IMG/VR virus record: IMGVR_UViG_3300037067_007848
Location: 1 to 64,000 of that record
Length of the DNA: 64,000 nt
Origin: a virus
Lineage: Duplodnaviria; Caudoviricetes
Direction: 5' to 3' (one strand)
Part shown: positions 7,148-35,728 of the stretch, in pieces
Layout of the letters: the number at the start of each line of letters is the position of its first letter
Numbering within the stretch: the first letter of the stretch is position 1
The notes under the pieces: generated by a model
The model's database searches: none
Told to the model about the DNA's origin: nothing
The model's input: only the letters and a program-made list of their open reading frames with translations
Made by a program: the position numbers and the translations under genes

Positions 7148-8263
7148 ATGAGAAAATTAACAAATGGCGAAATTGAACTAATTAGGAAGTATCCTAATCA
7201 AGTAGACTGGGATGAAATTACTTATAAAATACTTTCAGAAAATTTTATTCGAGAATTTAGAAATCATTTTAATTTAGGATTATTATTATTGTGGCAAGAT
7301 TTTTCAGAAGATTTTATAATAGAATTATCTAATGGAATTTCTAAAGAAGAAGAAAAAGATTTTTGGAAGATGATTACTACTCATCAAAAAATTTCTGAGA
7401 ATTTTATAGAAAAACACCAAGATAAATTATATTGGAAGGAAATTTCTTACAGTCAAAAATTATCTGAATCTTTTATTAGAAAATTTAAAGATAAAATTCA
7501 TTTTGACAAATTATATATAAAAGAAAATATTTCTGAAGATTTTATATTAGAATTTCAAAATAAATTAGATTGGTTTAATGTCAGTATGCGTAAAAATTTA
7601 TCAGAAAGTTTTATATCTATATTTGCCGATAAATTACAATGGTGTGTATTAAATTTTGGGCATTTGTTTTCTATTGGATTTATTGAAAAATTTAAGAATA
7701 AAATAGAATGGGAGACACTTAGTTCAACTTATATTTTATCGGAGGATTTTATTAGAAAATATCAGAATTATGTTTGTTGGGAATATATTAGCCAATATCA
7801 AAAACTTTCTGAGGATTTTATAAGAGAATTTAAAGGCAAGGTATTTTGGACTAATATTTGTAAATATCAAAAATTATCATTTGAATTTATTAAAGAATTT
7901 GGCCTTGTCGTAGATAATAAATCTTGGATATATAAATCCGGGGATGAAAAACTAAAAATTATTAAAAAGGACACAAAATGCGAAATTAACGGCGATTATA
8001 TTATAGCATATAAACAAGTCGGATTAAATCGTTATGCTAATTGGAATGTTTTATATAATATTGGGAATATTATTGAAGGAAATTCTGGGCATAATATAGA
8101 AAGAAATTCGATGTTTGGGCTTGACGCATACCCAAATATAGAAGATATTAGAGAAATTGATGTAAATAGTCAAATAATTAAAGTAAAAATACATAAAAAT
8201 GATTTACGAGGGCAGAATTGTGACAGTGGAATTTTTTGCACAAAAATGACTGTTTTAACATAA
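7148..8263 (+). CDS. Tryptophan-repeat protein, paralogue of 3..743
   Basis: About 10 degenerate W..IS..QKLSE.FI..F units; same C-terminal GDYIIAYK domain. Confidence 0.85.
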   Translation: MRKLTNGEIELIRKYPNQVDWDEITYKILSENFIREFRNHFNLGLLLLWQDFSEDFIIELSNGISKEEEKDFWKMITTHQKISENFIEKHQDKLYWKEISYSQKLSESFIRKFKDKIHFDKLYIKENISEDFILEFQNKLDWFNVSMRKNLSESFISIFADKLQWCVLNFGHLFSIGFIEKFKNKIEWETLSSTYILSEDFIRKYQNYVCWEYISQYQKLSEDFIREFKGKVFWTNICKYQKLSFEFIKEFGLVVDNKSWIYKSGDEKLKIIKKDTKCEINGDYIIAYKQVGLNRYANWNVLYNIGNIIEGNSGHNIERNSMFGLDAYPNIEDIREIDVNSQIIKVKIHKNDLRGQNCDSGIFCTKMTVLT

Positions 8264-8276
8264 TTAAATAAAACAA

Positions 8277-8495
8277 ACCTTTGGCTTAATGTAGGAGCCT
8301 TGAGACGGGTATATAAATAATTCGGCAATAGCCAGAATGTCTCAAAAGTATTTTGAAAAAATCTATAAATTATAATGTTGTACAAAATATTAAATAAATA
8401 TATTTGGAGAGTATAATGGAGGATTTCTTAGAATATACATTCTTTACGAATACTACATGTTAGGGAGAGTTTACACCATATCAACTAATATTCTC
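8277..8495 (+). ncRNA. Orphan copy of the TnpB-associated omega/tracr-like RNA scaffold with a putative fused guide
   Basis: Collinear similarity to 14186-14370 (tgtagg.gccttg.gacggg, tgtc.caaaagtattttgaaaaaa, aatgttgta, gagagt, ggagg.tttcttagaa) with compensatory stem changes. Confidence 0.75.
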
Positions 8496-8522
8496 TCGTA
8501 TTTTTATAAAAGGAATATCCCT

Positions 8523-12779: not shown

Positions 12780-14186
12780 ATGTTTGCCCATAAAATTAGA
12801 CTAAAGTTAGATAAACCTACCTCCGATATTATTGATAAGCGAATGAATGTTTGCCGCCTAATTGATAATTTATTTATTGGCGAAATGTTTAGGCGGGTTG
12901 GACTTCGTAATCAGTCTAAAACATGGCAAAATGGAATCGCCCTAAAACATTTGGGTAGGAAGAAAAAAGAGGGTAATTTACTTCTAAGCGAGGCGTCTAA
13001 AAAATACGCTTGCAATATTGGATACTCTTACCTATTAAATGGATTTGGGAATAAAGAATTTGCCCATTCTTGGCATTTACAACATATTGCCAAAACTATT
13101 GTCGGTTTACGTGGGCAAAATATAGTGGGAAATTTCAAAAAATGGCTTATTGACCATAAGGGCAATCCAAAAAAAGGAAAACCGCGATTTAATCGTTTTG
13201 GGGACTGCCGTACAGTTTATGGAAGTTTGGCCACAAGTAAAAAAACATCTGGGAAAATTATTCTATTTAATAAAGATAATGGGCAAATTATTTGGGGCGG
13301 GAGAGGGGTTGACAAAATCTCATTAGACTGTATAATAGACCCTGGAGACAAAAACACCCAACTTGCACTAAATAGCACAATTAAGCGTGTCGGCATAACA
13401 AAAGAGAATAATAAGTATTACGGAATTTTAATTTGTGATACCGATCCATTAGTTAAAGGAAAATATAGTCCAAAAACAAATAATATTGTAAGTTTTGATA
13501 TTGGAATTAAAGACATTGCAATAGTTACGTCAGACGGAAAAACATATAAATTACCACTTTTAGAGGGACTAAAAGATAGTGCCCGCGAATTAAATATTTT
13601 GGCCCGAACAATAGAACGTCGTCGGCGAATGGCCAACCCACAAAATTATAATGAAAACGGCACAATTAAACGTGGTATTAGATTAACATGGAATAAGACT
13701 AATAATTATCTCTCCGCACTTAAAAAATACAAAAATCTCGCCTATAAACAACAACAAACGCGTAAAAATCTTCATAATAATTTAATTCATTGGATGATGG
13801 GGTTGGGCAATACCTTCCATTTTGAAAAAATCGACTATAGAACATGGGCCAAAGGATTAAATAAAACTCAACGGCGTAATATGGGATTATTTTCACCTGG
13901 ATTGTTTATTTCCTTATTAAAATATAATGTGTTGAAATATGGATTAAAAATTGACGAATTTTCCACATATAGCACGGCTTGTAGCAAAACGTGTATTTGT
14001 GGGGAAAAGCATAATAAAAAAGATGATATTTATATATGCCCAGTATGTGGCCTTGCTATAGACCGTGATATAAAGTCGGCCTACCTTGGTTTGTGGGTTG
14101 AAGAAGATAAAATTAATCATCAACGGGCAAAAGATAATTATGACAAATTCAAAGAACGATTAAACAATTTTAGAACTGAGCGATGA
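12780..14186 (+). CDS. tnpB: TnpB/Cas12f-like RNA-guided RuvC endonuclease, CRISPR-associated
   Basis: RuvC-I SFDIGIK, RuvC-II FHFEKID, Zn finger C-ICG...CPVCG, RuvC-III DRDIKSA; all three acidic residues present. Confidence 0.88.
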   Translation: MFAHKIRLKLDKPTSDIIDKRMNVCRLIDNLFIGEMFRRVGLRNQSKTWQNGIALKHLGRKKKEGNLLLSEASKKYACNIGYSYLLNGFGNKEFAHSWHLQHIAKTIVGLRGQNIVGNFKKWLIDHKGNPKKGKPRFNRFGDCRTVYGSLATSKKTSGKIILFNKDNGQIIWGGRGVDKISLDCIIDPGDKNTQLALNSTIKRVGITKENNKYYGILICDTDPLVKGKYSPKTNNIVSFDIGIKDIAIVTSDGKTYKLPLLEGLKDSARELNILARTIERRRRMANPQNYNENGTIKRGIRLTWNKTNNYLSALKKYKNLAYKQQQTRKNLHNNLIHWMMGLGNTFHFEKIDYRTWAKGLNKTQRRNMGLFSPGLFISLLKYNVLKYGLKIDEFSTYSTACSKTCICGEKHNKKDDIYICPVCGLAIDRDIKSAYLGLWVEEDKINHQRAKDNYDKFKERLNNFRTER

Positions 14187-14400
14187 CCTTTGGCGAAAGT
14201 CAAGTGGCCTACTGTAGGGGCCTTGGGACGGGAAAGTAACCTAACAATAGTTGGGTGTCCCAAAAGTATTTTGAAAAAACTTATAATCTGCAATGTTGTA
14301 AAAAGCGATTCAAAAGGTCGTATTTTGAGAGTGCAGAGGAGGGTTTCTTAGAAATATAATTACCCTAAAGTATTACAGCATAACAAGTTACGGCGGATGA
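14186..14400 (+). ncRNA. omegaRNA/tracrRNA-like scaffold with an anti-repeat
   Basis: GAAA-capped hairpin cttTGGC-GAAA-GTCAag; stems ttgggac/gtcccaa and ctgca/tgcag; anti-repeat ttaccctaaa (14360-69) and gcataac (14378-84) complementary to the CRISPR repeat. Confidence 0.75.
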
Positions 14401-14566
14401 GATGTAGTTATGCCGATTTTTAGGGGTAACTACAAGCAAATGCTGGTTCGTAGATATGCTGCCAAAGATGTAGTTATGCCGATTTTTAGGGGTAACTACA
14501 GGCCAAGTGCCTCATAATCGGCAAGCAATTTTGATGTAGTTATGCCGATTTTTCGGGGTAACTACA
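14401..14566 (+). CRISPR. Mini CRISPR array: 3 repeats of GATGTAGTTATGCCGATTTTTAGGGGTAACTACA, 2 spacers
   Basis: 34-nt repeats at 14401, 14467 and 14533 (one mismatch in the last), exact 66-nt period, unrelated 32-nt spacers, palindromic TGTAGTTA/TAACTACA ends. Confidence 0.9.
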
Positions 14567-14620
14567 GTAACTACAGGTAGATTTTATATATCAGATTTGG
14601 ACAAATATATGGACAAATAA

Positions 14621-15007
14621 ATGAAACTAACAAAAGGCACCATTGTAGATAAACCTTGGGGATTTGAGGAAATATATGTTAATTCGGATAAATATTGTGG
14701 AAAACGCCTAGTTATTCAAATTGGTGGGTCGACTTCAATTCACGCCCACATCGTTAAGATGGAGACTTTCACACCAATTTTGGGGAATTTAAATGTTGAT
14801 TTGTATCGACAGATTTGTTTAGATTATGGTGACAAACAAAAAATTTCCACAGAAATAATAAAAACCATTCAATTAAAAACCGGCGAAACATTAACACTAC
14901 CCCCAAAAACCATTCATCGCCTATATCCTGATCAGGGTGATATGGTAGTTTTGCTTGAATTTTCGACTAACCACGACGATAAAGACACAATAAGATATTC
15001 ACAATAA
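14621..15007 (+). CDS. Cupin-domain protein (sugar isomerase-like)
   Basis: KPWGFE...SIHAH..KMETF...IHRL..LLEFS. Confidence 0.8.
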   Translation: MKLTKGTIVDKPWGFEEIYVNSDKYCGKRLVIQIGGSTSIHAHIVKMETFTPILGNLNVDLYRQICLDYGDKQKISTEIIKTIQLKTGETLTLPPKTIHRLYPDQGDMVVLLEFSTNHDDKDTIRYSQ

Positions 15008-34579: not shown

Positions 34580-35728
34580 ATGAAAAATAAATTTATTGAA
34601 CAGGAAAAATTATATGCCATATCAATTAATATTATGGCAAGGATTGAGGATATTCTACAATGTCTTGGCGTAGAATTACGGGATGGTCGAAAAATGTTGG
34701 TCGGCCCCTGTCCAATACACGGCGGGGATAAATATAACGCCTTTAATTTATATACCGAGGAAGATAGTATTGGGGCTTGGAAATGTCGCACTCATAATTG
34801 CCATCGTTATTTCGCTGGAAATATCATAGGATTTATTCGTGGCGTTTTATCAAGACAAAAGTGTGGGTGGTCAAAAAATGGGGATGAAATTTATTCATTT
34901 GCCAATACTCTAAAGTTTATCTCCGAATGCCTAAACGAAGATTTTTCTTCTATTAAAGTAAATTCGGACAAAATGGAACAACGGCGATTTATAAATTATT
35001 CACGATATTTTCAAAAATTTCAACCAATTAAAAATGGGACAACTAGGGAAGATATTCGGAAAATATTAACAATTCCTTGTCCCTATTTTATTAAACGTAA
35101 TTTTTTGCCCGAAACATTGGATTATTTTGACATTGGGACATGTAATACGCCATCCAATACTTTGTTTAATTCGTCGGTTGTCCCCATTTATGATTTAGAG
35201 AAAAAATTTGTTATTGGAACCAGTGCCCGTTCAATTTGGGAAAAATGTACAAAATGCGGGACATGGCATAACCCCAAAAGAGGTTGCCCAAATTATTTTG
35301 AAATAGATAAATATTCTAAGTGGAGACACTCAAATTTCAAGAGAAATACATCCGTTTACAATTACTGGAATGCCGCCCGCGATATTTATAGGACAAAAGT
35401 ATGTATTTTGACCGAATCACCAGGAAATGTTTGGGCATTACAACAGGCTGGATTGCCAATTGGGCTTGCGACCTATGGAACGGCATTGGACGATAACCAA
35501 ATTCGACTATTAAATATGACTGGGGCACTTTCCATAATATTAATCGGCGACAATGATAAAGCGGGACATGAATTTAACGTGATAAATACACAAAAATTGC
35601 GGTCTATGTTTGATATTCATACAATTATTCCTTGTAAAAATGATATTGGAGATATGACAATTGAGGAAATTAAACAACAAATTAAGCCAGTGTGCATCCA
35701 GTGTAAAGAAAAATGGGCGATTTTGTAA
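34580..35728 (+). CDS. dnaG: DNA primase (CHC2 zinc finger plus TOPRIM)
   Basis: CPIHGGD..WKCRTHNC; ILTESP; GDNDKAG; NDIGD. Confidence 0.85.
   Translation: MKNKFIEQEKLYAISINIMARIEDILQCLGVELRDGRKMLVGPCPIHGGDKYNAFNLYTEEDSIGAWKCRTHNCHRYFAGNIIGFIRGVLSRQKCGWSKNGDEIYSFANTLKFISECLNEDFSSIKVNSDKMEQRRFINYSRYFQKFQPIKNGTTREDIRKILTIPCPYFIKRNFLPETLDYFDIGTCNTPSNTLFNSSVVPIYDLEKKFVIGTSARSIWEKCTKCGTWHNPKRGCPNYFEIDKYSKWRHSNFKRNTSVYNYWNAARDIYRTKVCILTESPGNVWALQQAGLPIGLATYGTALDDNQIRLLNMTGALSIILIGDNDKAGHEFNVINTQKLRSMFDIHTIIPCKNDIGDMTIEEIKQQIKPVCIQCKEKWAIL

Follow-up and report, generated by a model that had tools for sequence, protein, structure and literature searches.

An intergenic element of a phage genome, lying on the + strand from 8277 to ~8505 of the window analysed here (the first 64 kb of a 121,008-bp IMG/VR virus record, linear and ~80% complete), is probably a stand-alone, one-piece guide-RNA gene of the omega-RNA type, used in trans and paralogous to the tracr-like scaffold of a CRISPR locus further downstream. 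The omega RNA is reportedly the right-end RNA (reRNA) of IS200/IS605 TnpB (Karvelis 2021). The element contains a complete fused scaffold (copy A, 8277..8475, + strand), identified by similarity, covariation, shuffle controls, homology to the RNAs of tnpB 3' ends, and its terminal hairpin. Its paralogue (copy B, 14186-14384, + strand, with the tracr-like scaffold proper at 14186-14358) lies between a mini CRISPR array and the gene of a 468-aa TnpB-family nuclease, the presumed protein partner. Judged by the sequence, the fused guide form and the CRISPR-split one appear to occur together in this single genome, as the original prediction for this region had proposed, and the anatomy supports it: copy A ends like the RNAs of insertion sequences (IS), and in copy B the corresponding hairpin is split.

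Paralogy, covariation and architecture of the two scaffolds

Copy A (8277-8475) is collinear with positions 14186-14384 of copy B plus the 3' end of the CRISPR repeat. Blastn aligns 8277-8432 with 14205-14358 (73% identity, E 9.4e-17), and the column identity of the MAFFT alignment is 75-81%, confirming the collinearity of 8277-8495 with 14186-14370 that had been noticed originally. The RNAalifold consensus of the two copies comprises 48 pairs, 15 of which are changed on both sides and four on one side, with none broken; the stem pairs named in the original prediction (ttgAgac/gtcTcaa versus ttgGgac/gtcCcaa, and TtAta/taTaA versus CtGca/tgCaG) are paired in this consensus. Since the consensus structure was derived from the same two sequences, 300 column shuffles of the alignment served as the control. 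The consensus energy is -38.7 kcal/mol, compared with a shuffle mean of -7.6 +/- 2.7 kcal/mol (z -11.7), and the 15 compensatory pairs exceed both the mean (3.5) and the maximum (10) of the shuffles, so that the proposed covariation holds for these two sequences. The reverse complement of the alignment yields a consensus energy of only -25.0, and thus the + strand is the RNA strand. A covariance model built from copies A and B alone (R1), a check that had been suggested, found exactly these two copies in the whole 121 kb. As had also been stated, copy A is devoid of the additional hairpin of copy B (six base pairs with a GAAA loop, 14190-14205).

The scaffold of copy A is predicted to consist of hairpin 1 (8283-8299, loop AAUGUAG), stem 2 (8300-8345), the long hairpin 3 (8351-8433, with internal loop AUGUUGUA/GAGAG), the terminal hairpin 4 (8439-8470), and the adaptor UUACA (8471-8475), all on the + strand. 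The terminal hairpin, formed by AUUCUUU (8439-8445) and GGAGAGU (8464-8470) at -3.1 kcal/mol, is the short imperfect 3' hairpin recognized at the outset; after the adaptor comes CCATATCAAC... / CCATATCAACTAATATTCTC, and hence a closed terminal hairpin with a short adaptor stands directly before the 3' guide. The candidate built-in guide is CCATATCAACTAATATTCTCTC (8476..8497, + strand), its start being set by homology to an IS605 right end and its 3' limit being uncertain. The loop of hairpin 1 contains a conserved UGUAG that is complementary to the adaptor (UUACA in copy A, CUACA in copy B), and in the structural model the two probably pair in both copies, resembling the long-range GGAUC:GGUUC pairing predicted in the IS relatives.

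In copy B, the terminal hairpin is distributed between two elements. The anti-repeat (14360-14384, + strand), which pairs with the CRISPR repeat, consists of UUACCCUAAA plus GCAUAAC, the 5' arm of the split hairpin, and the end of each repeat, UUUAGGGGUAA-CUACA, provides the 3' arm plus the adaptor. The mini-array (14401..14566, + strand) contains three 34-nt repeats (at 14401, 14467, and 14533, with a 66-nt period) and two 32-nt spacers. The anti-repeat:repeat duplex has a predicted energy of -19.3 kcal/mol, compared with -14.8 kcal/mol for the repeat's own hairpin, and the anti-repeat and the first repeat, taken as one transcript, form a hairpin of -18.1 kcal/mol with a single-stranded tail. 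In the shuffle control, the duplex alone is not significant (110/500), and therefore the support for the split form comes mainly from the homology with the closed hairpins of copy A and the relatives. Given its predicted pairing, copy B has in split form the hairpin that copy A and the transposon RNAs have in closed form; the locus thus combines a RuvC TnpB-like nuclease adjoining an array with a reRNA divided into tracrRNA (trans-activating CRISPR RNA) and crRNA (CRISPR RNA). Directly after the third repeat, its last 10 nt occur a second time (14557-14576, GTAACTACAG twice), and a T>C change (TTTTCGGGG) weakens the pairing with the anti-repeat, so that this repeat looks like a degenerate terminal one.

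The nuclease gene (12780..14186, + strand) is the only one of its kind in the 121-kb record and is present in a single copy. The 468-aa protein matches Pfam PF07282 (Cas12f1-like_TNB, 5.5e-8), NCBIfam guided_TnpB (3.5e-21, under the family cut-off), and PADLOC Cas12f (1e-11). Its best solved relatives in PDB are ISDra2 TnpB (2e-4) and LaTranC (3.5e-4), the latter match covering the zinc-finger region only; Cas12n is also among the weak PDB matches. In an alignment with 25 relatives, D240 and E349 are invariant, and D430 and the four zinc-finger cysteines are nearly so; by this alignment, the predicted catalytic residues of RuvC (D/E/D) are intact.

Homology to the RNAs of related tnpB genes

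The comparison with omega RNAs relied on distant protein relatives (23-33% identity). No close phage relative was found in a single-protein scan of viral contigs, and a metagenome scan with the nuclease yielded only relatives with 23-25% identity; one protein (P0003, 83% identical) is encoded on a 2,090-bp contig of the Joint Genome Institute (JGI). Model R1 matches a site (L064:5450-5513, 24.4 bits, E 2e-6) that overlaps the 3' end of a tnpB-like gene whose product is 30% identical. Three stems of this match are fully compensated (GUGUCA/UGACAC, CUUUGG/CCAAAG, and AAAUCAGA/UCUGAUUU), and the internal-loop motifs AUG-UGUA and GAGAG are kept. At the loci of 16 relatives, R1 with default filters found nothing, and the motif was later located by a regular expression. 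Ten relatives carry the hallmark module (stem, AUGNUGUA / ATGNTGTA, variable hairpin, GAGAG, stem) at the 3' end of the gene or immediately behind it; the module occurs 11 times in the 12.3 kb around gene ends, compared with three times in the 197 kb elsewhere in the same loci.

An alignment of six sequences (copy A and the RNAs of five relatives) shows compensatory changes in 18 of the 26 consensus pairs. Between the motif and the RNA end, the five relatives have 126-141 nt and copy A has 141 nt, and the 5' part, CUUUGG-UUAA...GAGACNG, is by eye also common to copy A and the relatives. Thus, the scaffold agrees in both sequence and structure with the RNAs that related tnpB genes have at their 3' ends, and on this comparative evidence the scaffold of copies A and B is a genuine guide-RNA scaffold of this TnpB clade. 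Rfam contains no family for it, neither at the gathering score nor at E <= 10. Among the viral contigs, a shared 19-mer occurs at 41 loci, none of which matches R1, and a GC-richer pattern of 19 nt hit a single locus, by chance.

The start of the guide can be compared as well. The RNAs of the IS relatives end with a closed hairpin and a short single-stranded adaptor, e.g., CUCCCGGC-UUUA-GCCGUGGAGAG, then GUUCAAU, and a terminal hairpin with a single-stranded tail is predicted in all the relatives and in copy A. The hairpin ends correspond (GGGAGAG-TTTACA in copy A, GGAGAGG-TTCAAT in the fused RNAs). One of the ten relatives with the module (L007), from a Methanosarcinales metagenome-assembled genome (MAG), is a textbook IS605 in which tnpA and tnpB are neighbours. 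The 99% identity between this element and its second genomic copy ends exactly after GGAGAGGTTCAAT (L007:7556), and therefore the right end of the transposon coincides with the first base of the omega RNA guide. Copy A carries GGGAGAGTTTACA at the same distance where the IS605 relative has GGAGAGGTTCAAT; the equivalent position of the boundary independently supports a guide start at 8476, in line with the original placement of the guide after TTTACA (8475).

The Methanosarcinales MAG contains the autonomous IS605 at L007:5499-7556 (tnpA, tnpB, omega RNA) and also a protein-less mini derivative of ~475 nt (L080:223-698, - strand), in which the left end and the right end with its omega RNA are both retained; the two archaeal elements have TGAAT and CAGAT as left flanks. 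Other phages have mini-arrays of two or three repeats downstream of related TnpB-like genes (L065:4571-4730, L070:4581-4672, and L075:4031-4212), and for two of these phages the genome, with terminal repeats, is complete (83 and 90 kb). The array repeat of L065 and L070 holds the entire terminal hairpin (CCCCAC-AGGC-GTGGGG) plus the adaptor, and thus the RNA seems to be split there at a different point than in this window.

Genomic setting, targets and alternative explanations

The gap that copy A occupies runs from the stop codon of a 371-aa gene (8263) to the likely next start, ATG 8523, which is preceded by AAGGA. As the downstream gene most likely starts there, the whole element is intergenic, a minor correction to the original prediction. 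Only 13 nt separate the stop codon from the scaffold. A promoter-like site (TTGCAC/TGCACA, spacer, CATAAT; 8237..8264, + strand), found by a consensus scan and spaced as TTGCAC-N17-CATAAT, ends 13 nt before the scaffold; the scan near copy A showed no enrichment over shuffles, and this putative site is compatible with copy A being an independent transcription unit. On the other side, a U-rich run, GUAUUUUUAU (8498..8507, + strand), follows an alternative hairpin, GGGAGAGU (8463-8470)/AUUCUCUC (8490-8497), and is a possible terminator; it was not called in a consensus terminator scan, because the loop of this hairpin is 19 nt.

There is no nuclease beside copy A, as had been reported: the sole TnpB-like gene of the record is elsewhere, and the upstream 371-aa open reading frame (ORF, 7148-8263) encodes a repeat protein, phrog_3532 (E 3e-59). 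Reading this ORF as a degenerate nuclease was rejected, the repeat protein being unrelated to the 468-aa protein. It is composed of repeated W/F-rich units of ~30 aa each, and many unrelated metagenome contigs cover positions 7364-7891 of the window at high depth, so that the repeat unit is widespread in those samples. Neither tnpA nor a left end adjoins copy A, and there is no room for either; copy A does not lie at the 3' end of a tnpB gene inside an IS with a left end. The entire 121-kb record contains no Y1 transposase and no cas1. Its G+C content is ~33%, and all genes of the region are on the + strand.

The same phage, identical, is present in one groundwater and one landfill metagenome (DNA runs), which therefore contribute no covariation; among the public runs, no RNA run holding the phage is listed. 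The landfill variant has a 14-nt insertion, CACAATAAGATATT, at position 14985 of the window, a tandem duplication at the end of a cupin-like gene (14621-15007) and the sole difference from the record noticed in 7.9 kb.

We infer that copy A is transcribed, loaded onto the 468-aa protein, and acts in trans on a target. Its RNA would be made on its own (~200-230 nt) or as the 3' untranslated region of the upstream gene, and the single nuclease of the phage would bind it in trans. Copy A would then program the nuclease with one hard-wired target, the mini-array supplying exchangeable guides from its two spacers. In this scheme, copy A would keep the ancestral closed hairpin, the 5-6-nt adaptor (UUUACA), and a fixed guide of ~20 nt from 8476, and in copy B the same hairpin would have been opened, its 5' arm becoming the anti-repeat and its 3' arm with the adaptor becoming the repeat end. 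A broader proposal, which we regard as possible and put forward tentatively, is that the phage is a living snapshot of the transition from omega RNA to CRISPR, with one nuclease served by one-piece and split guides at once, and with a target that may be a host gene.

The search for targets of the sequence after TTTACA, another check that had been suggested, gave no convincing candidate in the phage, in viral contigs, or in prokaryote genomes. Within the phage, 17 of 18 guide positions match window positions 34617-34634, codons 13-18 of the DNA primase gene (34580-35728, phrog_47); this match is not significant, as 1.3%-9% of random genomic k-mers equal it (the share varies with their length), and it has no T-rich flank. 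In the viral contigs, the guide 18-mer has three 19-nt matches with no common flank, and in 596 Gb of prokaryote genomes the guide has six scattered matches, both at the chance level. The best genome match (L056:6434-6454, 21 nt exact, with a TTTT 5' flank) is from a fen Bacteroidales MAG and spans the start codon of a gene for a 373-aa membrane protein. About 0.1-0.3 matches of this type are expected by chance, and it may be taken as a near-chance lead to the host or target. Spacers 1 and 2 have no match in the viral contigs.

Several observations weigh against the use of copy A as a guide in trans. No target reached significance in the phage record, the viral contigs, or the prokaryote genomes searched (596 Gb). 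Hairpin 4, the terminal one, is weak, the whole-RNA fold of copy A is no better than those of shuffled sequences (z -0.39), and guide positions 15-22 can pair with the 3' arm of the hairpin, GGGAGAGU, giving a terminator-like hairpin before the U run. The covariation between copies A and B comes from two paralogues of one genome. A further model (R2), derived from the five GC-rich IS RNAs alone, has its best match to copy A at the correct position, though not significantly (1.6 bits, E 0.35 in 600 nt); we attribute this failure to composition, yet it limits the strength of the homology claim. No second scaffold was found in the two complete related phages with mini-arrays, and therefore the copy A arrangement is not a general trait of the clade. 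Finally, ~20% of the phage genome is missing, and a second nuclease might be encoded there.

Part of this evidence would fit an unused, not yet degraded relic, left over from the right end of a tnpB/IS copy that was lost or from a nuclease locus that had been duplicated: the nuclease, tnpA, and the left end are all absent beside copy A, no target was found, the terminal hairpin and the overall fold are weak, and protein-less derivatives of such elements exist in the clade. We consider a relic rather unlikely, since at ~25% divergence all 48 pairs are kept, 15 of them compensated, whereas neutral decay would have broken pairs; moreover, the single-stranded motifs common to distant relatives are all kept, and copy A exactly fills the intergenic gap, with promoter-like and U-run flanks. 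The original prediction had itself named a decayed non-autonomous IS end in the flanks as a contrary outcome; the lack of a left end and of room for one disposes of that as far as a complete element is concerned, and a relic right end retains the low probability just given.

The primase match bears on another reading, in which copy A is bound by the nuclease and plays a regulatory role, either as a decoy titrating the protein or as a partial-match guide repressing a phage gene in the manner of tracr-L and Cas9. It is suggested by the position of the match, near the start of a primase gene that belongs to the phage itself, and by natural autoregulating single guides known for Cas9 (10.1101/2020.05.21.102756), but the match is not significant against random k-mers and has no T-rich flank, and the RuvC residues of the nuclease are intact; we consider regulation quite unlikely. 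We give still less credence to copy A serving another protein, be it another TnpB-like nuclease, encoded in the missing ~20%, or a TnpB/Cas12 of the host, which the phage would reprogram or block. The incompleteness of the record, viral single-guide RNAs reported to act against host Cas9 (10.64898/2026.06.01.729453), and contigs in two metagenomes in which a stretch similar to 8382 onward is linked to sequence that the record lacks speak for it; however, copy A is closely paralogous in structure to the scaffold that adjoins the phage nuclease and has the same single-stranded motifs, so that the 468-aa protein is the simplest partner. In these contigs, which occur at the phage's own depth in two runs (X1 and X2), sequence like that up to 12876 is joined to sequence like that from 8382 via 15 nt (AAAATAATATGATAG) found nowhere in the 121-kb record; the joint may stem from a third scaffold-like piece, located in the unassembled part, or from misplaced AT-rich sequence.

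Comparison with known systems

A stand-alone guide gene used in trans, our preferred reading of copy A, would have its closest counterparts in the omega RNAs of IS200/IS605 TnpB and of palindrome-associated transposable elements (PATEs). The likeness comprises a one-piece scaffold with a 3' guide, a homologous hairpin module, and a terminal hairpin followed by an adaptor. The protein-less PATEs encode omega RNAs that TnpB must use in trans (Meers et al., 10.1101/2023.03.14.532601), and copy A is likewise an orphan RNA dependent on TnpB encoded elsewhere. Unlike these elements, copy A lies outside any transposon, having no left end or tnpA; the scaffolds of the IS relatives overlap with tnpB at its 3' end, whereas copy A is a free-standing intergenic unit in a phage, and its presumed protein partner is CRISPR-associated, in contrast to the TnpB of IS omega RNAs.

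The locus of the nuclease and the array is of a known kind, i.e., TranC-like or miniature type V in phages. TranC and the miniature type V systems are small TnpB-CRISPR systems that include phage-borne ones such as CauTranC9 (2025 Cell, cited in PMC13565253; 10.64898/2026.03.27.714800). The copy B locus shares with TranC a TnpB-sized nuclease, a tracr-like scaffold between the gene and the array, and three repeats of 34 nt, has no cas1, and is phage-borne as CauTranC9 is. As the 468-aa protein matches LaTranC only at E 3.5e-4 and in the zinc-finger region, it is likened to TranC without placement in a clade.

How type V CRISPR-Cas arose from TnpB is at present explained by the splitting of the right-end RNA into tracrRNA and crRNA. 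With both designs kept in one natural genome for what looks like a single nuclease, this step would become directly testable with native parts, and such a genome raises the questions of whether the same protein accepts both RNAs, whether they share the target- or protospacer-adjacent motif (TAM/PAM), and what the phage gains from a fixed guide and a small array. If the proposed reading is true, a fused and a split guide can both be functional in the same natural genome, and neither need have replaced the other. Copy A would also offer a ready-made natural single-guide design for a compact 468-aa nuclease, its closed hairpin marking the point at which tracrRNA and crRNA could be fused in copy B; the relevance thus extends from the evolution of TnpB into Cas12 to compact editors.

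Orphan omega RNAs in transposon form and natural single guides for Cas9 are already known. What appears new is the presence of two paralogous scaffolds, one free-standing and fused and the other CRISPR-split, for apparently one nuclease; no such natural genome was found in the literature consulted on TranC, omega RNA, and natural guides. In the type V-K CRISPR-associated transposons (CAST), the delocalised crRNA is a fixed guide encoded apart from the array. This crRNA, tracr-L of Streptococcus pyogenes Cas9, standalone cr-like RNAs, and the viral single-guide RNAs of phages (vsgRNAs) resemble copy A in providing a fixed guide from outside the array for the same effector. Those guides, however, come from tracr or repeat pieces of the same locus, whereas copy A is a full second scaffold 6 kb away that has the ancestral fused architecture.
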